A stretch of 64,000 nt of DNA from the NCBI RefSeq assembly GCF_964213995.1, contig NC_135830.1:5332001-5396000 (forward strand). Direction: 5' to 3'. Position numbers and translations under genes: made by a program. Positions 27,311 to 62,962 of this stretch are shown piece by piece; position 1 is the stretch's first letter, and each line of letters opens with the position of its first letter. Source of the stretch: Mustelus asterias. Taxonomy: Eukaryota. The notes under the pieces are model-generated. The model was not told the origin of the DNA. It saw only the letters and a program-made list of their open reading frames with translations, and did no database searches.

Positions 27311-27395
27311 ATATAGAAACTTACTTGTATAAATATGTTTGATTAATTAATAAACGCAAGTAAGAGTCTAACTTGAATCGACTATTCTTTCCCAG

Positions 27396-27695
27396 CGACA
27401 CCGTCTCCGCCCACTCTTTACATCCTCGTCTCTTCCTGTCAGCAACACAACTCCGCTGGCTCCATCACCTACGGCTGTTTGGCAATGGACTACTCTCCAG
27501 ATGTCTCCAAACTGACCTGGAAGAAAAATGGGCAGCTGATCACCACTGGATTTAAGACTTATCCATCAGTGAGAAACACGAAGGGAACCTATACCCTGAG
27601 CAGCCAGTTAACCATTACCCAGTCAGTGGGAGAGTGCAGCAAAATCGACTGTGAGGTTCGACACAGCGACTCCGTCAAGAGCATTGAAATGCGAT
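27396..27695 (+). CDS. IGHM: Immunoglobulin mu heavy chain constant exon CH1
   Basis: CCCAG| ... |GTAAG, phase 1; ATPSPPTLY...[10 protein letters not shown]...WKK...TYPSV...[11 protein letters not shown]...CEV, a C1-set domain matching shark C-mu-1. Confidence 0.95.
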
Positions 27696-27844
27696 GTAAG
27701 TGTTGTGGAACTTGGGCAAGACAGGAACGCTGTGATTGAACTGTATAAGGCCTTAGTTATAACTGATCTGTAGCATTCTGAAAAAAATTGAATTATGCAA
27801 AATCCAGGTAAGTGCCTACTGACTGAAAAGTTGTTCAGAACCAA

Positions 27845-28575
27845 AGAACAACAGGACTGTTACTGTGCAGAATGAGGCCATTGAGCCCATCACGTCTGTG
27901 CTGGCCAAAAGGGAGAACAAATAAACTAGCCAGACATTTTGAGCCCATTTTCCAGCCCTTGCGCCGTAGCATTGCAGGTTAAAGCACCTGAGATGCAGAC
28001 GTAATGACCTTTTAAATGACCATGCTCCCTGGTAATTGAGCCCTCCACTTGGGGAATGAATTATTTCTGCCTACGTCCCTTCTAATTTTGTGAACCACAA
28101 TTACGTCACGCCTCAGCCTCCTCTTTTTCTGAGGAGAAAAACCCCTGCCTATCCAATCTCGCCTCATGGCTGCAATTTTCAGGCCCTGACAACATTCTTG
28201 TTAACCTCATCTCTCTCCAGATTCATTACGTCATTCCTGCAACGTGGTGACCAGAACTGAACAGCAAACTCCAAACGTGGCCTAACTGGGTTTTATGCAG
28301 CTCCATCATTGCATCACTGTTTTTGCATTCAATATCTCACATAATAGAGGAACTAATCCGATATGCTTTCTTGATCAACTTGTCCAGCTGCCCTACCATC
28401 TATAAGGACATGTGGACGTGCTCTCTAAGGTCTTGCATTTCCTCAATCCCTCTTAACATTCCAGTTTATTGCCTTGCTTTGCTTTCCCTCCCCAAATGCA
28501 TTGTGTGGCACTTTTGACGGTTGAATTCCATTCGCCATTTCCCTGCCAATTCAACCAAACCATGGATATAATTCT
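27845..28575 (-). mobile_element. Old CR1 3' fragment in the CH1-CH2 intron
   Basis: Reverse-strand RT C-terminal motifs (QFWSP, RP.LE) and a CR1-like tail. Confidence 0.65.
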
Positions 28576-28668
28576 CAAATCGGCAGGTATTTTGCTCATA
28601 TAAAAGAACTAATTTTAATTGATGTCAATTGAATCTTCAAGTAACGTCTGAACATTTGTTTGTTGAAG

Positions 28669-28980
28669 GCCCAATCGTTATCACCCCAACCGTTATCCTC
28701 ACCGTGAGTTCCAGTGAAGAAATCACCAGCAGAAAATTTGCAACCATCGTCTGTTCAATCATCGATTTCCAGCCAAAGTCAATGACGGTGAAGTGGCTGA
28801 AGAATGGACAACCCATGGATTCAGGAATTATCACCTCTCCCGCCTATGAAGTGAACAGGAACTTCTCGGCCAGCAGTCGGCTGACAGTCTCCGCTCAGGA
28901 ATGGATCAGCAAAGCGGTCTATACCTGCCAGGTCACTCATCAAGGATTCACTCAGAGTCAGAACATCAGCGGATCTCTGG
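28669..28980 (+). CDS. IGHM: Immunoglobulin mu constant exon CH2
   Basis: GAAG| ... |GTAAG, phase 1; [41 protein letters not shown]...YTCQVTH. Confidence 0.95.
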
Positions 28981-29164
28981 GTAAGAGACTCAAACCGAGG
29001 ATAAAATATACCATTCCGATGTTAATCGGAATTAGGGGTCTATTAAAGTTAGTACAAAGCACAGAACAACTTCGAATTTGCTGCCATGTGGTTTGCTGCA
29101 TTAAGACAGTGCCCCATTCAGAATTTCATCACAACAGCAATTTTTGTTATTCCTTCATGAGATG

Positions 29165-29464
29165 TGCATTTATTTCCCATCCCTGAGGGCACTTAAGTGT
29201 CAACCACATTGCTGTGGATCTGGAGTCACATGCATGCCAGGCCAGATAAAGACAGCAGATTTACTTTTTTAAAGGGCATTCGTGAACCAGGTGGGTTTTT
29301 ACAACAACGGCTTCATGATGATCATTTGACTTTTAATCATAGATTTTTATTGAATTCAAATTTCACCATTTGCAGTGGTGAGATTCGAATCCGTGTCTCT
29401 TCAATTAGAGTCTTGTCCTCGGTCTCTTGGATTACAAGTCCATTGACAATACCACTGCCTCCCC
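29165..29464 (-). mobile_element. tRNA-derived SINE (second family) in the CH2-CH3 intron
   Basis: Reverse-strand head GGGGAGGCAGTGG...GGATTCGAATC (B box); body homologous to 12560-12830. Confidence 0.65.
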
Positions 29465-29898
29465 TTGAAAGAGTGTTTATTTCTGTTTTGAAGTAACATA
29501 GTGAGCGAGGCGGCCTTGATGTCAGCCTTTTTCCTGAGACGGCTGGTAAGATTTGGAGAAACAGTTGGTGTTGGACTGTTTCACAGGTCACAGCGGAGGG
29601 GTTAAATGTTGGAAAGTGCATTCACCCTAATAATAAATCAATGACAAGTACTGTGTTCCTGAGTTGGGGCATGGTTTGGAATGCTGCAATGCTGATTCAT
29701 GAGAATGATACCGCTGCTAAAATATTTTAATAAAGAGAATAGTTTCACAGATCGAGCTGGTTTTCCATCGTCTATAAAAGTTTAAAGGCGATACTTAGAG
29801 GTTGATATCTCGAAGGCGACTTTTTCTCCTTTAGGGTGAATACTACTGCCCTGCTTCTGAAGAGGGAACTTGGGTTGATTTTCATTTGTCATTCACAG

Positions 29899-30207
29899 GT
29901 CCTTGCCAGTGCCATGATTCCACAGTGACCATACAGCCACCACCAATAGAACAGGTCTTACTGGAGGCTACCGTGACCTTAACCTGCATCATTTCTCATG
30001 CTCCTTATGGAGTCAATGTGTCCTGGATCCGAGACAGGAAGTATTTGAAATCAGAGATTGCCGAAAAGCCAGGAGCCGATCCTGACAGCGTGGTCAGCAA
30101 CTTAAACATCTCGACACAAGCCTGGCTGAGTGCGGCTGTGTTTCACTGCGTGGTGAGCCATCAGGATCTGCCGACTCCTTTAAGAAAATCCATCCACAAG
30201 GAAACAG
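29899..30207 (+). CDS. IGHM: Immunoglobulin mu constant exon CH3
   Basis: CACAG| ... |GTGAG, phase 1; [41 protein letters not shown]. Confidence 0.95.
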
Positions 30208-30704
30208 GTGAGCTGAGAGATTGAAGCAATAAATGCGTCACTGTGTCTACTTCCAGTGTCAGTGTACTGGTCAATATTCAGTATTCAGTGCATTAATGGT
30301 GTCCCCTGAGTGGAAACTCTACTAACTAAAGACTCTGGTCCTGCATATATTTTTACGGGGAAATTTGATGTGTTGATGAATGAAAAGTGAACTGAAGGCG
30401 ATGTTATTGGGTTTAGATCGAATAACGAGGGAGGAGCCTGATGTGGAGCATGAAAACCAATAAAAAAAAGCAGATCAGTTGGGCCGAAGAGCCTGATTCA
30501 GTGCTGTAAACTTTCTGAAACTTTCCAGTCCAACCCGCTGAGTTATTTGAGAAAACAATTGCGTTCACCTCTCCTCCAAGCTGGAAGTCAAAAATAGAAA
30601 CATTTAAAATCGAAAGCGAAGCACATTTTTCTGATACCTAGCCAGCAGTTTCATTGTCTCCAGAATTCTCCAGTTTATTGACATCTATTGTACATTTTCT
30701 GCAG

Positions 30705-31096
30705 ATCCAAATCCGCGGGAACCGTTCGTCTCTGTCCTCTTGCCCTCGGCAGAAGAAGTCTCCGCTCAGAGATTCGTCTCCCTCAGCTGCTTAGTGAGAC
30801 GTTTCTCCCCTCGAGAGATCTTCGTCAAGTGGACCGTCAACGACAAGCCGGTGAATCCTGGGAACTACAGGAACACCGAGGTGGTCGCGGAGAGCGGGAA
30901 TAGCTCCTTCTTCATGTACAGCCTGTTATCCATTGCAGCAGAGGAGTGGTCCAGCGGCGCTTCTTACTCCTGTGTGGTGGGACATGAAGCCATCCCCTTG
31001 AAGATCATCAACAGAACAGTTGACAAATCCAGCGGTAAACCCAGTTTTGTGAACATTTCCCTTGCTCTGATGGACACCGTTAATTCATGTCAATGA
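30705..31096 (+). CDS. IGHM: Immunoglobulin mu constant exon CH4 plus secretory tailpiece
   Basis: TGCAG|; [28 protein letters not shown]; tail [20 protein letters not shown] with an NIS glycan site and penultimate Cys; internal donor AGCG|GTAAAC after 31034 for the membrane form. Confidence 0.97.
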
Positions 31097-39970: not shown

Positions 39971-42877
39971 TCAAGCTATCCCACTCCCTACCATCCTGGT
40001 GTGCTCCATGTGCCTATCCAATAACCGCTTAAATGTTCCTAAAGTGTCTGACTCCACTATCACTGCAGGCAGTCCATTCCACACCCCAACCACTCTCTGC
40101 GTGAAGAACCTACCTCTGATATCCTTCCTATATCTCCCACCATGAACCCTATAGTTATGCCCCCTTGTAATACCTCCATCCACCCGAGGAAATAGTCTTT
40201 GAACGTTCACTCGATCTATCCCCTTCATCATTTTATAAACCTCTATTAAGTCACCCCTCAATCTCCTCCGCTCCAGAGAGAACAGCCCCAGCTCCCTCAA
40301 CCTTTCCTCATAAGACCGACACTCCAAACCAGGCAGCATCCTGGTAAATCTCCTCTGCACTCTTTCCAGCGCTTCCACATCCTTCTTATAGTGAGGTGAC
40401 CAGAACTGCACGCAATATTCCAAATGCGGTCTCACCAAGGTCCTGTACAGTTGCAGCATAACCCCACGGCTCTTAAATTCCAACCCCCTGTTAATAAAAG
40501 CTAACACACTATAGGCCTTCTTCACAGCTCTATCCACTTGAGTGGCAACCTTTAGAGATCTGTGGATATGGACCCCAAGATCTCTCTGTTCCTCCACAGT
40601 CTTCAGAACCCTACCTTTGACCCTGTAATCCACATTTAAATTAGTCCTACCAAAATGAATCACCTCACATTTATCAGGGTTAAACTCCATTTGCCATTTT
40701 TCAGCCCAGCTTTGCATCCTATCTATGTCTCTTTGCAGCCTACAACAGCCCTCCAACTCATCCACTACTCCACCAATCTTGGTGTCATCAGCAAATTTAC
40801 TGATCCACCCTTCAGCCCCCTCCTCTTAGTCATTAATAAAAATCACAAAGAGCAGAGGACCAAGCACCGATCCCTGCGGCACTCCGCTAGCAACCTGCCT
40901 CCAGTCCGAAAATTTTCCATCCACCACCACCCTCTGTCTTCGATCAGATAGCCAGTTACCTATCCAATCGGCCAACTTTCCCTCTATCCCACACCTCCTT
41001 ACTTTCATCATAAGCCGACCATGGGGGACCTTATCAAACGCCTTACTAAAATCCATGTATATGACATCAACTGCCCTACCTTCATCAACACACTTAGTTA
41101 CCTCCTCAAAAAATTCTATCAAATTTGTGAGGCACGATTTGCCCTTCACAAATCCGTGCTGACTATCCCGGATTAATCTGCATCTTTCTCAATGGTCGTA
41201 AATCCCATCCCTAAGGACCTTTTCCATCAATTTACCAACCACCGAAGTCAGACTAACCGGTCTATAATTACCAGGGTCATTTCTATTCCCTTTCTTAAAC
41301 AGAGGAACAACATTTGCCACTCTCCAGTCCTCTGGCACCATCCCCGTGGACAGCGACGACCCAAAGATCAAAGCCAAAGGCTCTGCAATCTCATCCCTCG
41401 CCTCCCAAAGAATCCTAGGATACATTTCATCAGGCCCAGGGGACTTATCGACCTTCAGTTTATTCAAAACTGCCAATACATCCTCCCTCCGAACATCTAT
41501 TTCCTCCAGCCTATTAGCCTGTAACACCTTCTCTTCCTCAAAAACATGGCCCCTCTCCTTGGTGAACACTGAAGAAAAGTATTCATTCATCACCTCGCCT
41601 ATCTCTACTGATTCCATACACAAGTTCCCACCACTGTCCTTGACCGGCCCTAACCTCACCCTGGTCATTCTTTTATTCCTCACATAAGAGTAAAAAGCCT
41701 TGGGGTTTTGCTTGATCCGACCCGCCAAGGACTTCTCATGTCCCCTCCTAGCTCTCCTCAGCCCCTTTTTCAGCTCATTCCTTGCTAACTTGTAACCCTC
41801 AATCGAGCCATCTGAACCTTGTTTCCTCATCCCTACATAAGCTTCCCTCTTCCTTTTCACAAGACATTCCACCTCTTTTGTGAACCACGGTTCCCTCACT
41901 TGGCCATTTCCTCCCTGCCTGACAGGGACATACCTATCAAGGACACCCAGTATTTGTTCCTTGAAAAAGTTCCACTTTTCATCAGTGCCTTTCCCTGACA
42001 GTTTCTGTTCCCATCTTATGCCCCCTAATTCTTGCCTAATCGCATCATAATTACCTCTCCCCCAATTGTAAGCCTTGCCCTGCCGTCCGGCCCTATCCCT
42101 CTCCATTGCAATAACAAAAGACACCGAATTGTGGTCACTATCTCCAAAGTTCTCTCCCACAACCAAATCTAACACTTGGCCCGGTTCATTTCCCAGTACC
42201 AAATCCAATGTGGCCTCACCCCTTGTCGGCCTATCCACATATTGTGTCAGGAAACCCTCCTGCACACACTGCACAAAAAGTGCCCCATCCAAACTATTTG
42301 ACCTACAAAGGTTCCAATCAATATTTGGAAAGTTAAAGTCCCCCATGACAACTACCCTGTGACCCCCACACGCATCCATAATCTGCTTTGCAATTTCTTC
42401 CTCCACATCTCTATTACTATTTGGGGGCCTATAGTAAACTCCTAGCAACGTGACCGCTCCTTTCCTGTTTCTAACTGCAGCCCATATTACCTCAGTGTGC
42501 ATATCCCCCTCAAAGTGCTTTTCCGCAGCCGTTAAACTATCCTTGATTAACAATGCTACTCCTCCACCTCTTTTACCAGCTTCCCTACACTTACTGAAAC
42601 ATCTATACCCCGGAACGTCCAACAACCATTCCTGTCCTTGTTCTACCCATGTCTCCGTAATGGCCACAACATCGTAGTCCCAAGTAGCAATCCACGCCCC
42701 AAGTTCATCCACCTTGTTCTGGATGCTCCTTGCATTGAAGTAGACACACTTCAACCCATCTTCCTGTCTACCAGTACCCACCCTTGACCTTGATACCTTC
42801 CCCAATATCTCACCACCCTCAACACTGACTTCCGGACTACAACTCCTTTTCCCACTCCCCTGACAAATTAGTTTAAA
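39971..42877 (-). pseudogene. CR1 ORF2 (APE endonuclease plus reverse transcriptase), two nonsense mutations
   Basis: YFNARS, ITETW, GDFN, SDH, KAFDKV, KFADD motifs; stops at 41189-41191 and 40826-40828, both Leu TTA in the sister copy; no frameshift. Confidence 0.92.
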
Positions 42878-43794
42878 TCCCCCTGAAGAGCCGTAGCAAA
42901 TTTCCCTCCCAGGATATTGGTGCCCCTCTGGTTCAGGTGCACCCCGTCCTGTTTGTAGAGGTCCCACCTTCCCCAGAACGTGTTCCAATTATCCACGTAT
43001 CTGAAACCCTCCCTCCTGCACCATCCCTGCAACCACATGTTTAAGTGCACTCTCTCCCTGTTCCTCAACTCGCTATCACGTGGCACCGGTAGCGTACCAG
43101 AGATGACCACATGTTTTGTCTTTGCTCTCAGCTTCCAGCCCAGCTCCCGAAATTCCTGTTTTAAATCCCCGTCCCTTCTCTTACCTATGTCGTTGGTACC
43201 AATGTGTACCACGACTTGTGACTGTTTCCCCTCCCCCTTAAGAATCCGGAAAACACGGTCCGAGACGTCACGGACCCTGCCATCCGCTAGGCAACAAACC
43301 ATCCTCGAGTCTCTTTTGCTGCCACAGAACCTCCTATCTATCCCTCTAACTAATGAGTCCCCAATAACTATTGCCCTCCCGCTCTCCTCCTTACCCTCCT
43401 GAGCCACAGGGACGGACTCAGTGCCGGAGATCCTCTCACTGCGGCTCACCACTGGTATGTCGTCCCCCTCAACCGTATCCAAAGCGGAATACTTCTTGCT
43501 AAGGGGAACGACCACAGGGGATCCCTGCACCGACTGCTTCTTCCCAGCCCCTCTCACCGTCACCCATCTATTTTCATTCCTCGGAGTAACTGTATCCCTG
43601 AAGCTTCTGTCTATGGCCATCTCTGCATCCCTAATGATCCTAAGTTCCTCCAACTCCAGCTCCAGTTCCCTTACACGGTTTTGGAGGAGCTGCAGATGGA
43701 TGCACTTCTCACAGGTATAATCAACAGGGACACTGACGTCGTCCCTCACCTCGAACATAGTGCAAGAGGAACATTGCACTGCCTTCACACCCAT
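42868..43794 (-). CDS. CR1 ORF1 protein (CxxC zinc finger/leucine zipper plus SGNH esterase)
   Basis: CSSC..CEKC, coiled coil, IVIGDSLVRG, HIGTND, DGVHLN; 308 aa intact. Confidence 0.92.
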   Translation of the reverse strand: MGVKAVQCSSCTMFEVRDDVSVPVDYTCEKCIHLQLLQNRVRELELELEELRIIRDAEMAIDRSFRDTVTPRNENRWVTVRGAGKKQSVQGSPVVVPLSKKYSALDTVEGDDIPVVSRSERISGTESVPVAQEGKEESGRAIVIGDSLVRGIDRRFCGSKRDSRMVCCLADGRVRDVSDRVFRILKGEGKQSQVVVHIGTNDIGKRRDGDLKQEFRELGWKLRAKTKHVVISGTLPVPRDSELRNRERVHLNMWLQGWCRREGFRYVDNWNTFWGRWDLYKQDGVHLNQRGTNILGGKFATALQGDLN

Positions 43795-53543: not shown

Positions 53544-54470
53544 ATGGGTGTGCAGGCAGTGCAATGTTCCTCTTGCACTATGTTTGAGGTGAGGGACGAC
53601 GACAGTGTCCCTACTGATTACACCTGTGGGAAGTGCACCCATCTGCAGCTCCTCCAAAACCGTGTTAGGGAACTGGAGCTGGAGTTGGATGAACTTAGGA
53701 TCATCAGGGACGCAGAGATGGCCATAGACACAAGCTTTAGGAATACAGTTACTCCGAGGATTGAAAGCAGATGGGTGACGGTGAGAGGGGCTGGGAGGAA
53801 GCAGTCCGTGCAGGGATCCCCGGTGGTCGTTCCCCTTAGCAACAAGTATTCCGCTTTGGATACGGTTGAGGGGGATGACATACCAGTGGGGAGCCGCAGT
53901 GAGAGGATCTCCAGCACTGTGTCCGTCTCTGTGGCTCGGGAGGGAAAGGGGGAGAGCGGGAGGGCGATAGTTATTGGGGACTCGTTAGTTAGAGGGATAG
54001 ATAGGAGGTTCTGTGGCAGCAAAAGAGACTCACGGATGGTATGTTGCCTACCGGATGCCAAGGTCCGTGATGTCTCAGACCGTGTTTTCCAGATTCTGAA
54101 GGGGGAGGGGAAACAGTCACAAGTCGTGGTGCACATTGGTACCAATGACATAGGTAAGAGAAGGGACGGGGATTTAAAGCAGGAATTTCTGGAGCTGGGC
54201 TGGAAGCTGAGAGCCAAGACGAAACATGTGGTCATCTCTGGTACGTTGCCGGTACCACGTGATAGCGAGTTGAGGAACAGGGAGAGAGTGCAGTTAAATA
54301 TGTGGTTGCAGGGATGGTGTAGGAGGGAGGGTTTCAGATACGTGGATAATTGGAACACGTTCTGGGGAAGGTGGGACCTGTACAAACAGGACGGGGTGCA
54401 CCTGAACCAGAGGGGCACCAATATCCTCGGAGGGAAATTTGTTACGGCTCTTCAGGGGGGTTTAAACTAA
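53544..54470 (+). CDS. CR1 ORF1 protein (zinc finger/leucine zipper plus SGNH esterase)
   Basis: 308 aa intact; GDSL, GTND and DGVH motifs. Confidence 0.92.
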   Translation: MGVQAVQCSSCTMFEVRDDDSVPTDYTCGKCTHLQLLQNRVRELELELDELRIIRDAEMAIDTSFRNTVTPRIESRWVTVRGAGRKQSVQGSPVVVPLSNKYSALDTVEGDDIPVGSRSERISSTVSVSVAREGKGESGRAIVIGDSLVRGIDRRFCGSKRDSRMVCCLPDAKVRDVSDRVFQILKGEGKQSQVVVHIGTNDIGKRRDGDLKQEFLELGWKLRAKTKHVVISGTLPVPRDSELRNRERVQLNMWLQGWCRREGFRYVDNWNTFWGRWDLYKQDGVHLNQRGTNILGGKFVTALQGGLN

Positions 54471-57364
54471 TTTGTCAGGGGAGTGGGAAAGGGAGTTGTA
54501 GTCCAGAAGTCAGTGAGGGTGGTGAGGTATTGGGGAAGGTATCAGGGTCAAGGGTGGGTACTGGTAGACAGGAAGGTGGGTTGAAGTGTGTCTACTTCAA
54601 TGCAAGGAGCATCCGGAACAAGGTAGATGAACTTGGGGCGTGGATTGGTACTTGGGACGACGATGTTGTGGCCATTACGGAGACGTGGGTAGAACAAGGA
54701 CAGGAATGGTTGTTGGACGTTCCGGGGTATAGATGTTTCACTAAGTGTAGGGAAGCTGGTAAAAGAGGTGGAGGAGTGGCATTGTTAATCAAGGATTGTT
54801 TAACGGCTGCGGAAAGGCACTTCGTGGGGGATCTGCACACTGAGGTAATATGGGCTGAAGTTAGAAATAGGAAAGGAGCGGTCACGTTGCTAGGAGTTTA
54901 CTATAGGCCCCCAAATAGTAATAGAGATGTGGAGGAAGAAATTGCTAAGCAGATTATGGATATGTGTGGGGGTCACAGGGTAGTTGTCATGGGGGACTTT
55001 AACTTTCCAAATATTGATTGGAACCTTTGTAGGTCAAATAGTTTGGATGGGGCAGTTTTTGTGCAGTGTGTGCGGGAGGGTTTCCTGACACAATATGTGG
55101 ATGGGCCGACTGGAGGTGAGGCCACATTGGATTTGGTACTGGGAAATGAACCGGGCCAAGTGTTAGTTTTGGTTGTGGAAGAGCAATTTGGAGATAGTGA
55201 CCACAATTCGGTGTCTTTTGTTATTGCAATGGAGAGGGATAGGGCCGTACGGCAGGGCAAGGTTTACAATTGGGGGAGGGGTAATTATGATGCGATTAGG
55301 CAAGAATTAGGGAGCATAAGTTGGGAACAGAAACTGTCAGAGAAAGGAACTAATGAAAAGTGGAACTTTTTCAAGGAACAAATACTGGATGTCCTTGATA
55401 GGTATGTTCCTGTCAGGCAGGGAGGAAATGGCCGAGTGAGGGAACCATGGTTCACAAAAGAGGTGGAATGTCTTGTGAAAAGGAAGAGGGAAGCTTATGT
55501 AGGGATGAGGAAACAAGGTTCAGATGGCTCGATTGAGGGTTACAAGTTAGCAAGGAATGAGCTGAAAAAGGGGCTTTGGAGAGCTAGGAGGGGACATGAG
55601 AAGTCCTTGGCGGGTCGGATCAAGGAAAACCCCAAGGCTTTTTACTCTTATGTGAGGAATAAAAGAATGACCAGGGTGAGGTTAGGGCCGGTCAAGGACA
55701 GTAGTGGGAACTTGTGTATGGAGGCAGTAGAGATAGGCGAGGTGATGAATGAATACTTTTCTTCAGTGTTCACCAAGGAGAGGGGCCATGTTTTTGAGGA
55801 AGAGAAGGTGTTACAGGCTAATAGGCTGGAGGAAATAGATGTTCGGAGGGAGGATGTCTTGGCAGTTTTGAATAAACTGAAGGTCGATAAGTCCCCTGTG
55901 CCTGATTAAATGTATCCTAGGATTCTGTGGGAGGCAAGGGATGAGATTGCAGAGCCTTTGGCGTTGATCTTTGGGTCCTCGCTGTCCACGGGGATGGTGC
56001 CAGAGGACTGGAGAATGGCGAATGTTGTTCCTCTGTTTAAGAAAGGGAATAGAAATGACCCTGGTAATTATAGGCCGGTTAGTCTTACTTCGGTGGTTGG
56101 TAAATTGATGGAAAGGGTCCTTAGGGATGGGATTTACGACCATTTAGAAAGATGCGGATTAATCCGAGATAGTCAGCACGGATTCGTGAAGGGCAAGTCG
56201 TGCCTCACAAATTTGATAGAATTTTTTGAGGAGGTAACTAAGTGTGTTGATGAAGGTAGGGCAGTTGATGTCATATACATGGATTTTAGTAAGGCGTTTG
56301 ATAAGGTCCCCCATGGTCGGCTTATGATGAAAGTGAGGAGGTGTGGGATAGAGGGAAAGTTGGCCGATTGGATAGGTAACTGGCTGTCTGACCGAAGACA
56401 GAGGGTGGTGGTCGATGGAAAATTTTCGGATTGGAGGCAGGTTGCTAGCGGTGTGCCGCAGGGATCAGTGCTTGGTCCTCTGCTCTTTGTGATTTTTATT
56501 AATGACTTAGAGGAGGGGGCTGAAGGGTGGATCAGTAAATTTGCTGATGACACCAAGATTGGTGGAGTAGTGGATGAGGTGGAGGGCTGTTGTAGGCTGC
56601 AAAGAGACATAGATAGGATGCAAAGCTGGGCTGAAAAATGGCAAATGGAGTTTAACCCTGATAAATGTGAGGTGATTCATTTTGGTAGGACTAATTTAAA
56701 TGTGGATTACAGGGTCAAAAGTAGGGTTCTGAAGACTGTGGAGGAACAGAGAGATCTTGGGGTCCATATCCACAGATCTCTAAAGGTTGCCACTCAAGTG
56801 GATAGAGCTGTGAAGAAGGCCTATAGTGTGTTAGCTTTTATTAACAGGGGGTTGGAGTTTAAGAGCCGTGGGGTTATGCTGCAACTGTACAGGACTTTGG
56901 TGAGACCACATTTGGAATATTGTGTGCAGTTCTGGTCACCTCACTATAAGAAGGATGTGGAAGCGCTGGAAAGAGTTCAGAGGAGATTTACCAGGATGCT
57001 GCCTGGTTTGGAGGGTAGGTCATATGAGGAAAGGTTGAGGGAGCTAGGGCTGTTCTCTCTGGAGCGGAGGAGGCTGAGGGGAGACTTAATAGAGGTGTAT
57101 AAAATGATGAAGGGGATAGATAGAGTGAACGTTCAAAGACTATTTCCTCGGGTGGATGGAGCTATTACAAGGGGGCATAACTATAGGGTTCGTGGTGGGA
57201 GATACAGGACGGATATCAGAGGTAGGTTCTTTACGCAGAGAGTGGTTGGGGTGTGGAATGGACTGCCTGCAGTGATAGTGGAGTCAGACACTTTAGGAAC
57301 ATTTAAGCGGTTATTGGATAGGCACATGGAGCACACCAGGATGATAGGGAGTGGGATAGCTTGA
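54461..57364 (+). pseudogene. CR1 ORF2 (APE plus RT), single nonsense codon
   Basis: One in-frame TAA at 55907-55909 (GAA in the sister copy); otherwise open. Confidence 0.92.
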
Positions 57365-59074
57365 TCTTGGTTTCAGATAAAGCTCGGCACAACATCGTGG
57401 GCCGAAGGGCCTGTTCTGTGCTGTACTGTTCTATGTTCTATGTTCTATATTCCAGGATGTTGTGGGAGGCTAGGGAGGAAATTGCGGGTCCCCCAGCCAA
57501 AATATTTGAATGATCGATAGTCACAGGTGAAGTGCCTGAAGATTGGAGGGTGGCAAATGTTGCGCCTTTGTTTAAAAAGGGCTGCAGGGAAAAGCCTGGG
57601 AACTACAGGCCAGTTAGCCTCACATCTATGGTGGGTAAATTATTGGAAGGTATTTTGAGAGACAGGATCTACAGGCATTTAGAGATGCAAGGACTGATTA
57701 GGGACAGTCAGCATGCCTTTGTGAGTGGAAAATCATGTTTCACAAATTTAATTGAGTTTTTTGAAGGGGTAACCAAGAAGGTAGATGAGGGCAGTGCAGT
57801 TGATGTTGTCTACATGGACTTTAGCAAGGCCTTTGACAAGGTACCGCATGGTAGGTTGTTGCATAAAGTTAAATCTCACAGGATCCAGGTTGAGGTATCT
57901 AAATGGATACAAAATTGGCTTCTGTTAGTTGGAGAGAGTTGTTTTTCAAACTGGAGGCCTGTGACCAGCGGTGTGCCTCAGGGATCAGTGCTGGGCCCAC
58001 TGTTATTTGTCATTTATATTAATGATTTGGATGAGAATATAGGGGGCATGGTTAGTAAGTTTGCAGATGACACCAAGATTGCTGGCATGGTGGACAGTGA
58101 GGAAGGTTATCTCCAATTGCAGCGGGATCTTGATCAATTGGGCCAGTGGGCTGACGAATGGCAGATGGAGTTTAATTTAGACAAATGCGAGGTGATGCAT
58201 TTTGGTAGATTGAACCAGGGCAGGACTTACTCAGATAATGGTAGGGCATTGGGGAGTTACAGAACAAAGAGATCGAGGGGTACATGTTCATAGCTCCTTG
58301 AAAGTTGAGTCACAGATGGACAGAGTGGTGAAGAAGGCATTCGGCACGTTTGGTTTCATCGGTCAGAACATTGAATACAGGAGTTGGGACGTCTTTTTGA
58401 AGTTATACAAGACATTGCTAAGGCCACACTTGGAATACTGTGTGCAATTCTGGTCACCCTATTATAGAAACGATATTATTAAACTAGAAAGAGTGCAGAA
58501 AAGATTTACTCGGATGCTACCGGGACTTGATGGATTGAGTTATAAGGAGAGGCTGAATAGACTGGGACTTTTTTCTCTGGAGCGTAGGAGGCTGAGGGGT
58601 GACCTTATAGAAGTCTATAAAATAATGAGGGGCATAGACAAGGTAGATAGTCAATATATTTTCCCAAAGGTAGGGGAGTCTAAAACTAGAGGGCATAGGT
58701 TTAAGGGGAGAGATACAAAAGTGTCCAGTGGGGCAATTTTTTCACACAGAGGGTGGTGAGTGTCTGGAACAAGCTACCAGGATGTCGCTAGTCGCGTCCC
58801 GGAAATCCTGAGGTGGGAGGGAGAGAAGCCTGAGGTAGCGGTACATATTGGTACCGCTGATGTGGGTAGGAAGGGAGAAGGGGTCATGAAAAGGGAGTAC
58901 AGGGAATTAGGGAGACAGCTGAGAAAGAGGAAAGCAAAGGTAGTAATCTCAGGATTACTGCCTGTGCCACGGGAAGGTGAGGGCAGGAATGGAGTGAGGT
59001 GGAGGATGAATGTGTGGCTGAGGGAGTGGTGCAGGGGGCAGGGATTCAGGTTCCTGGACCATTGGGACCTCTTT

Positions 59075-59843
59075 AAGACCATAAGACCATAAGACATAGG
59101 AGCGGAAGTAAGGCCATTCGGCCCATCGAGTCCACTCCACCATTCAATCATGGTTGATTTCAACTCCATTTACCCGCTCTCTCCCCATAGCCCTTAATTC
59201 CTCGAGAAATCAAGAATTTATCAATTTCTGTCTTGAAGACGCTCAACGTCTCGGCCTCCACAGCCCTCTGTGGCAATGAATTCCACAGACCCACCACTCT
59301 CTGGCTGAAGAAATTTCTCCTCATCTCTGTTCTAAAGTGACTCCCTTTTATTCTAAGGCTGTGCCCCCGCGTCCTAGTCTCCCCTGTTAATGGAAACAAC
59401 TTCCCTACGTCCATCCTATCTAAGCCGTTCATTACCTTGTAAGTTTCTATCAGATCTCCCCTCAACCTCCTAAACTCCAATGAATATAATCCCACGATCC
59501 TCAGACGTTCATCGTATGTCAGGCCTACCATTCCTGGGATCATCCGTGTGAATCTCCGCTGGACCCGCTCCAGTGCCAGTATGTCCTTCCTGAGGTGTGG
59601 GGCCCAAAATTGCTCACAGTACTCCAAATGGGGCCTAACCAGTGCTTTATAAAGCCTCAGAAGTACATCCCTGCTTTTGTATTCCAAGCCTCTTGAGATA
59701 AATGACAACATTACATTTGCTTTCTTAATTACGGACTCAACCTGCAAGTTTACCTTTAGAGAATCCTGGACTAGGACTCCCAAGTCCCTTTGCACTTTAG
59801 CATTATGAATTTTGTCACCGTTTAGAAAATAGTCCATGCCTCT
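59075..59843 (-). mobile_element. 5'-truncated CR1 (family D) inserted in ORF1 of family C
   Basis: Uninterrupted RT C-terminal frame on the minus strand; (TCTTATGG)n tail at 59075-59097. Confidence 0.92.
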
Positions 59844-59941
59844 AGCGGCAGGGGTGATCTGTATACAAAAAACGGGTGGAACTTGAATCACACGGGGACC
59901 AATATCCTGGCCGGTAGGTTGGCTAAGGCTACTGGGGAGAA

Positions 59942-62900
59942 TTTAAACTAGATAGGTTGGGGGGAGGGGAGCTAGAAGAGTTGACTAGGATCAAGGAACT
60001 AATTGATGGGGGGGAGGATGCAGGGGTAAGGGGAATTACAAAATTAATGGTAGAGGAGAGGGTGCAAGTGAATGAAGGCGGTAATTTAGATAAGGGAGTA
60101 GAGGGAGAGGGTGTTCGCGACTCATCAAAGCGGGTCCAGATAAAAGCTGGAATAAGGACACTTTGCCTGAATGCACGAAGCATTCGGAACAAGGTGAATG
60201 AGTTGATGGTGCAAATCAGCACAAGTGGGTACGATCTAGTGGCCATTACAGAAACATGGCTGAAAGGTGACCAGGACTGGGAGATGAATATCCAGGGGTA
60301 TCAGGCGTTTAGGAAGAATAGACAGGAAGGAAAAGGTGGTGGGGTCGCGCTATTAATAAGAGATAATATCAGGGTAGTACTGAGGGATGACATAGGCTCT
60401 GAGGAACAAAACGTGGAATCATTATGGGTAGAGATGAGGAATAGTAGAGGGAGAAAGACACTAGTAGGTGTGGTATATAGGCCCCCAAATAATAATGTTG
60501 AGGTAGGGAGGGCTATAAACAAGCAGATAAGGGATGCGTGTAAAAACGGAACGGCAATAATCATGGGGGACTTCAACATGCACATTGACTGGCAGACTCA
60601 AGTCAGTAAGGGTGGAATGGAGGAAGAGTTCTTAGAATGCTGTCGGGATAGTTTCCTTGAACAGCATGTTACGGAACCGACAAGGGAACGAGCTATTTTG
60701 GATCTGGTATTGTGTAACGAGGTAGGTAGAATTAAGGATCTTATTGTGAAGGACCCTCTTGGGTCTAGTGACCACAATATGGTCGAATTTCTGATTCAGA
60801 TGGAAGAGGAGAAAGTTTGGTCTCAAACCAGTGTCCTCTGTTTGAACAGAGGGAAATATGATAGGATGAGGGATGAATTGGCTAAGGTAGACTGGGAGAG
60901 CAGGCTGGCAGGTAGGATAGCTGAGGAACAGTGGAGGATTTTTAAGGAGATCCTTTTCAGTTCTCAGCAAAAATATATTCCAGCAAAAAACAAGGATTGT
61001 AAGAAAAGGGAGAACCAGCCGTGGATAACGAAGGAAATAAAGGAGAGTATTAAAATAAAAACAGCTGCGTACAGAGTGGCCAAAAATAGTGGAGAAACAG
61101 GTGATTGGGAAAAATTTAAGAAACAACAAAGAGAGACTAAGAAAGCGATAAAGAAAGGAAGGATAGACTATGAAGCTAGGCTAGCAATTAATATAAAAAA
61201 TGATAGTAAAAGTTTTTATAAATATATAAAAAGGAATAGAGTGGCTAGAGTGAATGTTGGACCCTTGGAGGACGAGAGGGGGGAGTTAATAGTGGGAAAT
61301 GAGGATATGGCTGAGTCTTTAAATACGTTTTTTGTGTCGGTCTTCACGGTGGAGGACACAAATAGTTTGCCAAATATTAACGATAGAGGGTTGGCAGCAG
61401 GAGAAATACTTAATACGATTAATGTTACCAGAGAGGCAGTGCTGGGTAGACTAATGGGACTGAAGGTGGACAAGTCCCCGGGTCCGGATGGAATGCATCC
61501 CAGGGTATTGAAAGAAATGTCAGAGGTAATAGTGGATGCGTTAGTGATTATTTATCAAAACTCGTTGCATTCTGGGGTAGTGCCGGTTGATTGGAAAGCG
61601 GCTAATGTTACGCCGCTGTTTAAAAAAGGAAGGAGACAAAAGGCGGGTAACTATAGGCCGGTCAGCTTAACGTCTGTAGTAGGGAAAATGCTGGAATCCA
61701 TTATTAAAGAGGAGATAGCAGGGCATCTGGATAGAAATGGTTCGATCAATCAGACGCAGCATGGATTCATGAGGGGAAAGTCGTGCTTGACGAACATGTT
61801 GGATTTTTATGAAGATGTGACTAGGGCGGTTGATGGAGGAGAACCGGTGGATGCGGTGTTTTTGGATTTCCAAAAGGCGTTTGATAAGGTGCCCCATAAA
61901 AGGCTGCTGAAGAAGATTAGGGCACACGGAGTTGGGGGTAGTGTGTTAAAGTGGATTGGGGACTGGCTATCCGACAGGAAGCAAAGAGTCGGAATAAATG
62001 GGTGTTTTTCCGGTTGGAGGAAGGTAACTAGTGGCGTGCCGCAGGGATCGGTACTCGGGCCGCAACTGTTTACCATTTATATAGATGATCTGGAGGAGGG
62101 GACGGAGTGTAGGGTAACGAAGTTTGCAGACGACACAAAGATAAGTGGAAAAGTGAATCGTGTGGAGGACGGAGAAGATCTGCAGAGAGATTTGGACAGG
62201 CTGAGTGAGTGGGCGAGGATATGGCAAATGGAGTATAACGTTGAGAAATGCGAGGTTATACACTTTGGAGGAAATAATAACAAATGGGATTACTATCTCA
62301 ATGGAAACAAATTAAAACATGCTACCGTGCAAAGGGACCTGGGGGTCCTTGTGCATGAGACGCAAAAGCCCAGTCTGCAGGTACAACAGGTGATCAAGAA
62401 GGCAAATGGGACGTTGGCCTATATTGCGAAGGGGATAGAATATAAAAGCAGGGATGTCTTGATGCACCTGTACAGGGCATTGGTGAGGCCGCAGCTGGAA
62501 TACTGTGTGCAGTATTGGTCCCCTTATATGAGGAAGGATATATTGGCATTGGAGGGAGTGCAGAGAAGGTTCACCAGGTTGATACCGGAGATGAGGGGTT
62601 TGGATTATGAGGAGAGGCTGAGGAGATTGGGTTTGTACTCGTTGGAGTTTAGAAGGATGAGGGGGGATCTTATGGAGACTTATAAGATAATGCGGGGGCT
62701 GGATAGGGTGGAGGCGGAGAGATTCTTTCCACTTAGTAAGGAAGTTAAAACTAGAGGACACAGCCTCAAAATAAAGGGGGGTCGATTTAAGACAGAGTTG
62801 AGGAGGAACTTCTTCTCCCAGAGGGTGGTGAATCTCTGGAATTCTCTGCCCACTGAGGTGGTGGAGGCTACCTCGCTGAATATGTTTAAAGCGCGGATGG

Positions 62901-62962
62901 ATGGATTCCTGATCGGTAAGGGAATTAAGGGTTATGGGGATCAGGCGGGTAAGTGGTACTGA
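59942..62962 (+). CDS. Intact CR1 ORF2: APE endonuclease plus reverse transcriptase (about 1000 aa)
   Basis: LNARS, ITETW, GDFN, SDH, KAFDKV, GVPQGS, KFADD; no stops from the ORF1 junction to 62962; first ATG at 60047. Confidence 0.93.
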   Translation, partial: FKLDRLGGGELEELTRIKELIDGGEDAGVRGITKLMVEERVQVNEGGNLDKGVEGEGVRDSSKRVQIKAGIRTLCLNARSIRNKVNELMVQISTSGYDLVAITETWLKGDQDWEMNIQGYQAFRKNRQEGKGGGVALLIRDNIRVVLRDDIGSEEQNVESLWVEMRNSRGRKTLVGVVYRPPNNNVEVGRAINKQIRDACKNGTAIIMGDFNMHIDWQTQVSKGGMEEEFLECCRDSFLEQHVTEPTRERAILDLVLCNEVGRIKDLIVKDPLGSSDHNMVEFLIQMEEEKVWSQTSVLCLNRGKYDRMRDELAKVDWESRLAGRIAEEQWRIFKEILFSSQQKYIPAKNKDCKKRENQPWITKEIKESIKIKTAAYRVAKNSGETGDWEKFKKQQRETKKAIKKGRIDYEARLAINIKNDSKSFYKYIKRNRVARVNVGPLEDERGELIVGNEDMAESLNTFFVSVFTVEDTNSLPNINDRGLAAGEILNTINVTREAVLGRLMGLKVDKSPGPDGMHPRVLKEMSEVIVDALVIIYQNSLHSGVVPVDWKAANVTPLFKKGRRQKAGNYRPVSLTSVVGKMLESIIKEEIAGHLDRNGSINQTQHGFMRGKSCLTNMLDFYEDVTRAVDGGEPVDAVFLDFQKAFDKVPHKRLLKKIRAHGVGGSVLKWIGDWLSDRKQRVGINGCFSGWRKVTSGVPQGSVLGPQLFTIYIDDLEEGTECRVTKFADDTKISGKVNRVEDGEDLQRDLDRLSEWARIWQMEYNVEKCEVIHFGGNNNKWDYYLNGNKLKHATVQRDLGVLVHETQKPSLQVQQVIKKANGTLAYIAKGIEYKSRDVLMHLYRALVRPQLEYCVQYWSPYMRKDILALEGVQRRFTRLIPEMRGLDYEERLRRLGLYSLEFRRMRGDLMETYKIMRGLDRVEAERFFPLSKEVKTRGHSLKIKGGRFKTELRRNFFSQRVVNLWNSLPTEVVEATSLNMFKARMDGFLIGKGIKGYGDQAGKWY

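Follow-up and report, generated by a model that had tools for sequence, protein, structure and literature searches.

Viral -1 programmed ribosomal frameshifting (PRF) of the infectious bronchitis coronavirus type and frameshifting of retroviral gag-pol place a heptamer of the form X_XXY_YYZ at the end of a structural open reading frame (ORF), followed in the -1 frame by a polymerase ORF that lacks its own start. The same register and arrangement are present where ORF1 meets ORF2 in three CR1 long interspersed nuclear elements (LINEs) within a 64,000-nucleotide stretch of the Mustelus asterias genome (contig NC_135830.1, positions 5,332,001 to 5,396,000; the whole of this stretch is referred to as the window). 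The CR1 heptamer, U_UUA_AAC, is identical to the infectious bronchitis coronavirus-type site and, together with G_GGA_AAC, is among the shiftiest heptamers for mammalian ribosomes (PMC5009743; statements attributed to this and other cited articles refer to the portions of their text that were accessible). CR1 differs from the viral systems in that the host of the signal is a non-LTR retrotransposon (one that lacks long terminal repeats), with a run of G residues 10 nt downstream and no hairpin or pseudoknot found. Conservation of the heptamer and of reading phase indicates that ORF2 of these elements is probably made by PRF on U_UUA_AAC, giving an ORF1-ORF2 fusion, and so supports the proposal of a gag-pol-like fusion made in an earlier, sequence-only reading of the window.

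Translation of ORF2 in LINEs has been called an open question, and the tested cases point to reinitiation (PMC3894237), which is described for SART1 and L1 (PMC3894237, PMC2881922, PMC10275272, PMC1965478). These elements share with CR1 a bicistronic LINE RNA, and their ORF2 depends on translation of ORF1, SART1 also needing a 3' RNA element; they differ in making a separate ORF2 protein (ORF2p), the accessible text mentions no slippery heptamer in either, and the UAAUG stop-start overlap exists in just 2 of the 14 CR1 families defined below. Dictyostelium TRE5-A and TRE3-A, non-LTR elements with an apurinic/apyrimidinic-type endonuclease (APE), are both said to require a -1 frameshift for ORF2 (PMC5911963), but they belong to another clade and another kingdom, and the statement stands in a figure legend, with neither slip site nor experiment in the accessible part; the accessible part of PMC5006619 adds nothing on the TRE frameshift. 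For Drosophila HeT-A, another non-LTR element, a frameshift is likewise said to be necessary, but the shift lies inside gag and HeT-A has no reverse transcriptase (RT); the same article mentions TART and favours unusual initiation for mammalian LINEs (PMC5009743). In a synthetic system, UUUAAAC with a 3' G-rich element supports up to ~7% -1 frameshifting stimulated by a G-quadruplex (Yu et al. 2013; PMC3919603), which needs four G3 tracts at 6-8 nt, whereas CR1 has GGGGG-N1-2-GGG at 10 nt, at best a two-tier structure.

CR1 is the main LINE of birds and makes up 11.8% of the chicken assembly (PMC11835228). No published CR1 frameshifting was found in the literature searched, a search that fell short of most subscription papers, the CR1 descriptions of the 1990s and Repbase/Dfam notes. 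In their accessible portions, PMC11835228 uses the term frameshift for avian leukosis virus (ALV) gag-pol, not for CR1; the text of PMC8665684 lacks the term, and the searchable part of its supplement lacks an ORF1/ORF2 junction; and the supplement of PMC4316615 holds no such junction, only three unrelated matches to the 3' part of ORF2. Provisionally, then, this is a known mechanism in a class of host where no description was found, and the overlap may already have been remarked upon in the older CR1 literature.

CR1 junctions in the window

Two of the three junctions belong to one family (family A) and the third to a divergent family (family C). ORF1 of the first family A element (53544..54470, + strand) encodes a zinc finger, a coiled coil and an SGNH esterase (Lipase_GDSL_2, E 5.5e-12) and ends in ...GGLN*; its final two codons and one further base constitute the heptamer (54461..54467), with the stop codon TAA (54468..54470) immediately 3'. 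ORF2, encoding a linker, APE and RT, is open in the -1 frame from the heptamer (54461..57364, with a premature TAA at 55907-55909), and a conserved G-run, the candidate stimulator, lies at 54478..54493, beginning 10 nt past the heptamer. The second family A element is on the - strand, with ORF1 (42868..43794) ending in ...GDLN*, the heptamer at 42871..42877 followed by TAA (42870-42868), and ORF2 in the -1 frame (39971..42877) until stops break it further on. In family C, a remnant of ORF1 (58760..59951, + strand) that retains the 3' half of the esterase ends in ...ENLN*, with the heptamer at 59942..59948 followed by TAG, a G-run at 59955..59969, and an ORF2 (59942..62962, APE and RT) of 1006 codons open from the heptamer. 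The full junction words are therefore TTTAAAC+TAA (54461-54470, +), TTTAAAC+TAA (42877-42868, -) and TTTAAAC+TAG (59942-59951, +), and at all three the -1 frame TTT AAA CTA leads into the APE domain. All three were reread exactly as the sequence-only reading had given them. Counting both strands, the window contains 25 instances of TTTAAAC and just three of TTTAAACTAR, each of the three at a CR1 junction.

As had also been reported, ORF2 of family A has no AUG until past the endonuclease motifs NARS and ETW: the NARS motif stands at codon 46/47 from the heptamer, and the first Met codons are numbers 165 (+ strand copy) and 125 (- strand copy). In family C, a Met at codon 35 precedes NARS at codon 76. 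ORF2 contains a premature stop codon in both window copies of family A; elsewhere in the genome there are copies whose frames stay open over long distances, such as L272, with 400 open ORF1 codons and 977 from the heptamer. The 40 best matches to each family A or family C junction in a search of the genome are 99.8-100% identical, and families A and C are therefore young.

By sequence, the window elements are CR1-clade LINEs. Pfam Lipase_GDSL_2 was matched in ORF1, and Exo_endo_phos (in the + strand copy of family A and in family C) and RVT_1 in ORF2; ORF2 of family C is 42% identical over 933 amino acids to a stork gene model (P0230), and the RT half of family A 54%; and homologues of ORF1 are present in birds, reptiles, frog and fishes. 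CR1 elements terminate at their 3' end in short tandem repeats instead of poly(A), and (TTCTATG)n-like tails were found 3' of ORF2 in all three window copies.

Several further features of these loci were noted. The family C ORF1 is interrupted at about 59075-59845 by a reverse-strand CR1 3' fragment, and the junction downstream of it recurs without any difference at 31 sites in the genome. A second slip-compatible word, G_GGU_UUA (54458-54464), overlaps the family A heptamer one codon upstream; among the 14 families it ranks first or ties for first in 8, with G_GAU_UUA in one further family, and 12/12 family representatives have G three bases ahead of the heptamer. Shark-like immunoglobulin heavy-chain constant exons are located at 27377-31096, among zinc-finger genes and CR1 copies.

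Conservation of the heptamer, phase and linker

The genome (3.7 Gb) holds tens of thousands of CR1 ORF1 candidates, from which 236 sequences were gathered, some by searches with two DNA queries and with six protein queries that yielded matches, others as fetched stretches; the sample is biased to copies with a well-kept ORF1 and is uneven across families. ORF1 ends were located by an esterase hidden Markov model that ends 12 codons before the C-terminus, the tail itself having no role in detection. The end of the model was reached in 217 matches, or 209 once identical sequences were removed. From 200 copies with the esterase in one frame, 17 clusters were formed at 12% distance, and the 14 with at least two members were used as families. 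A search with P0016 gave no match in this genome at E 1e-115, and 20 ten-kb stretches picked without any search contained one scoreable junction (L182), with the heptamer present.

TTTAAAC is found in exact register at 183 of the 209 distinct ORF1 ends, and within 15-45 nt of the end of the esterase model in 192 (TTTAAAY in 200). Allowing small register shifts, no other word is as frequent in 11 families, and in another it ties with TTTAAAT; one decayed family has TTTAAAT over TTTAAAC by 5 to 3 (AAT is still slip-compatible), and in one four-copy family an A has been lost in two copies. A synonymous control was made by taking, for each family and column, the codon used most often. At the penultimate ORF1 Leu this codon is TTA in 14/14 families, although in the body of ORF1 only 28 of 200 Leu codons are TTA (14%) and each of six invariant esterase Leu columns uses 3-6 codons; a single codon is kept in just 2 of 32 amino-acid-invariant degenerate columns, and a single third base in 8 of 161 body columns. 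Any of six residues (G, S, R, D, C, A) may stand before this Leu, yet its codon ends in T in 13/14 families at fixed register, the codon of the fourteenth being shifted by a G insertion upstream; the sequence-only reading had put forward a tabulation of TTA and the preceding T. Amino-acid constraint alone thus fails to account for the TTTAAAC word.

A more elaborate form of constraint would have ORF1 protein (ORF1p) need a C-terminal Leu-Asn and an overlapping, independently started ORF2 need Phe-Lys-Leu, the heptamer being a by-product. LN is indeed conserved across vertebrate ORF1 proteins, and T TTA AAY is the only sequence that can encode LN in frame 0 together with FKL in frame -1; LN by itself fixes neither TTA nor the preceding T, and FKL is selectable only if translated. 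Upstream of the heptamer, the -1 frame is closed by a stop within 1-5 codons in 10/12 representatives, with no ATG upstream in any, and ORF2 therefore has no upstream start in those 10. This closure largely refutes the by-product explanation, which is extremely unlikely.

The APE domain is in the -1 phase relative to the heptamer in 145 of 182 copies, and the modal distance from slip site to endonuclease is divisible by three in 13/14 families (one of these resting on a single copy of three), the modal distances being 120, 126, 141, 144, 171, 186, 210 and 237 nt; only the family with the lost A departs from this. ORF2 phase, whose variation among families would have counted against frameshifting, is thus kept in 13/14. 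In 11 families, the -1 frame of the linker has stops in 0/516 codon columns, whereas the two remaining frames have 32 and 47. No ATG precedes NARS in 103 of 131 open copies, and 6/12 families have none at all. The linker must remain open and in phase, with little restriction on its residues, a pattern that would suit a tether and equally an N-terminal extension.

Production of ORF2 from a spliced or internally promoted RNA, with the conserved word as a splice, branch-point or DNA-level signal, is very improbable. The branch-point consensus resembles CTAAT, which is contained in the junctions of TAA families; it is absent from TAG families, the downstream sequence is G-rich rather than pyrimidine-rich, and a splice or DNA-level signal would not require the -1 phase. 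One contig of a presumed RNA run crosses the stretch unspliced, and no GT..AG was found among 15 of the 26 joints, a weak check in which RNA status is a guess; no splice-type joint was seen there, a spliced ORF2 RNA being an outcome that the sequence-only reading had named as contrary to its proposal.

In a few copies (L226, L227, L034, L045 and L050), one extra base just before the heptamer puts ORF1 in frame with ORF2 (...GFKL...). Several of these are on small contigs with near-identical sequence, which suggests local amplification of a decayed copy.

ORF1 ends in other vertebrates and beyond

Comparison outside this genome was limited to proteins, apart from the scans described at the end of this section. 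Among close homologues that reach the C-terminal helix, 30 of 33 end in xLN. For distant homologues, 150 representatives were taken at 50% clustering, of which 108 reach the end of the model; the 96 with a tail of 8-25 residues were scored and 12 dropped. A C-terminal dipeptide compatible with X_XXY_YYZ is present in 62 of these 96, compared with 4.7% of internal dipeptides. The compatible ends comprise 52 LN, 9 GN and 1 KN, and all nine GN ends are QGN, which is compatible with a G_GGA_AAC site; a search for longer, fused forms of the QGN-ending elements found none. Residues whose codons cannot end in T (E, Q, K, M, W) precede LN in 1 of 52 LN ends, compared with 20% of residues in these proteins and 13% of those before internal LN, a modest test. 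The sources of LN-ending ORF1 proteins include swallow, snake, lizards, turtles, frog, eel and sturgeon, and xLN extends from rays to birds. Some other distant ORF1 proteins (P0149, P0120, P0105, P0168, P0175, P0147, P0136) end in FFR, FFH, FFN, EN or KN, ends that would fit U_UUU_UUY, G_GAA_AAC or A_AAA_AAC sites.

Ten stork gene models read SFKLD and are open for ~95 residues to NARS. In stork (LIDRALN* and AHRQSFKL) and turtle (RALN* and KSFKL), the peptides of the two frames force T TTA AAY, although the 0- and -1-frame peptides are from different copies and the turtle pair is from two species.

One ORF1 homologue with 70% identity (P0007) is annotated as an SGNH hydrolase of Pseudomonas aeruginosa; its contig is 4 kb long, and the bacterial assembly was probably contaminated with fish DNA. 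When vertebrate alignments were run against metagenome, GTDB and viral collections, no usable match emerged (L111 and L112 have no esterase match), and a scan of the viral collection with an invertebrate-type set gave no matches. The metagenome scan with the invertebrate-type set gave 20 loci, 4 with strong esterase matches and 16 weak or bacterial. In one of these, an invertebrate-type CR1 (L143:940-1170), ORF1 ends in ...QRV* and ORF2 is open in the +1 frame across the stop with no Met before NARS, attributable either to a different recoding site or to an indel in that copy. Two other esterase-bearing elements, L144 and L145, have ORF2 in +1 with an ATG soon past the ORF1 stop, and likely use ordinary reinitiation.

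The G-run, reinitiation and the proposed fusion

Four G residues starting 10 nt past the heptamer and two more three bases later are invariant in 12/12 representatives, including a four-fold degenerate Gly position (elsewhere GGG accounts for 138 of 360 Gly codons). The G-run score of the junction is in the top 0.1-5% of each element, and 159 of 187 copies show the pattern. The G-tracts within about 10 nt had been linked in the sequence-only reading to stimulation by a G-quadruplex; the G-run is conserved, but the + strand copy of family A has three runs of three or more G, the - strand copy just two (GGGGAGTGGGAAAAGG), and four G3 tracts are not kept. No three-tier G-quadruplex was found at the site in the 12 representatives, and a canonical G-quadruplex at the junction is not supported. 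The G-run is a conserved nucleotide element and a candidate stimulator. As possible partners for it, C-rich sites that recur near -650 and -430 nt, and others scattered on the 3' side, were examined; a long-range partner was rejected, because in 24 upstream windows cognate pairs did not exceed non-cognate pairs in strength (permutation P 0.09-0.82).

The main rival to frameshifting is termination-reinitiation, in which ribosomes halted by UAR would begin again, in the -1 frame, from an overlapping or nearby codon, with or without AUG, producing a separate ORF2p with the G-run as a helper. It accounts equally for the fixed phase and the stop-free linker; SART1 requires an RNA structure downstream of its stop (PMC10275272, PMC3894237), and in L1 the ATG of ORF2 can be replaced by any sense codon (PMC1965478). 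The codon overlapping the stop is ATG in the two UAAUG families and GTG, ATT or ATA in six more, but GAT, GAA or GTT, which are not near-cognate, in at least 5/14 families, including the two largest. Reinitiation gives no reason for an invariant T-TTA-AAC before the stop, nor for GN and KN ends that obey X_XXY_YYZ in other lineages, and for these elements we consider it unlikely.

Several observations weigh against frameshifting on this heptamer or against the proposed stimulator. The families share ancestry (mean between-family distance 0.32, maximum 0.45), so that 14 families are not 14 independent trials. An in-frame ATG precedes NARS in some or all copies of 6/12 families, 2/14 families have the UAAUG overlap, and the linker varies over codon positions 36/48/44, without bias, compared with 33/24/51 in APE. 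Folding z-scores of -2.0 to +1.5 in the 12 representatives indicate no conserved hairpin, and no conserved 3' hairpin or pseudoknot was found at 5-9 nt, the spacing of the canonical -1 PRF cassette, in a C-poor region and by a fold test without direct pseudoknot modelling. A two-tier G-quadruplex at 6 nt is predicted in 7/12 representatives and none in the other 5; the G-run, beginning at 10 nt, is outside the 6-8 nt optimum for G-quadruplex stimulators (PMC3919603), and it does not covary with the upstream C-rich sites. Beyond this genome, 34 of the 96 distant ORF1 proteins have no slip-compatible end; the stork models carry a Met ~11 residues before NARS, and because this linker Met is near APE, reinitiation may operate in stork; and the heptamer is absent from 4/4 strong metagenome matches, with ORF2 of L143 and L144 in +1.

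By the frameshifting mechanism, most ribosomes would stop at UAR and yield ORF1p, and a minority would re-pair from UUA AAC to UUU AAA by tandem -1 slippage and continue into ORF2. The predicted fusion consists of zinc finger, esterase, linker, APE and RT, with the family A junction ...GGLN-LICQG..., and the linker of 37-70 codons may serve as a variable tether. The stimulator is likely to be the G-run 10 nt downstream, aided by the adjacent stop codon, rather than a hairpin or pseudoknot. We put forward more tentatively, with somewhat less than even confidence in the whole, that -1 PRF is ancestral for the RT of vertebrate CR1 from sharks to birds, yielding a Gag-Pol-like fusion, that some relatives have swapped to G_GGA_AAC, and that the shark elements use the G-run and stop codon as stimulator with neither hairpin nor pseudoknot.

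If frameshifting is confirmed, the CR1 RT would be a fusion with ORF1p, which would provide a simple route to cis-preference and to the stoichiometry of ORF1p and ORF2p. The annotation of ORF2 and of 'intact' CR1 copies would change, and CR1 would represent a very abundant natural frameshift site of host genomes, with an unusual stimulator.

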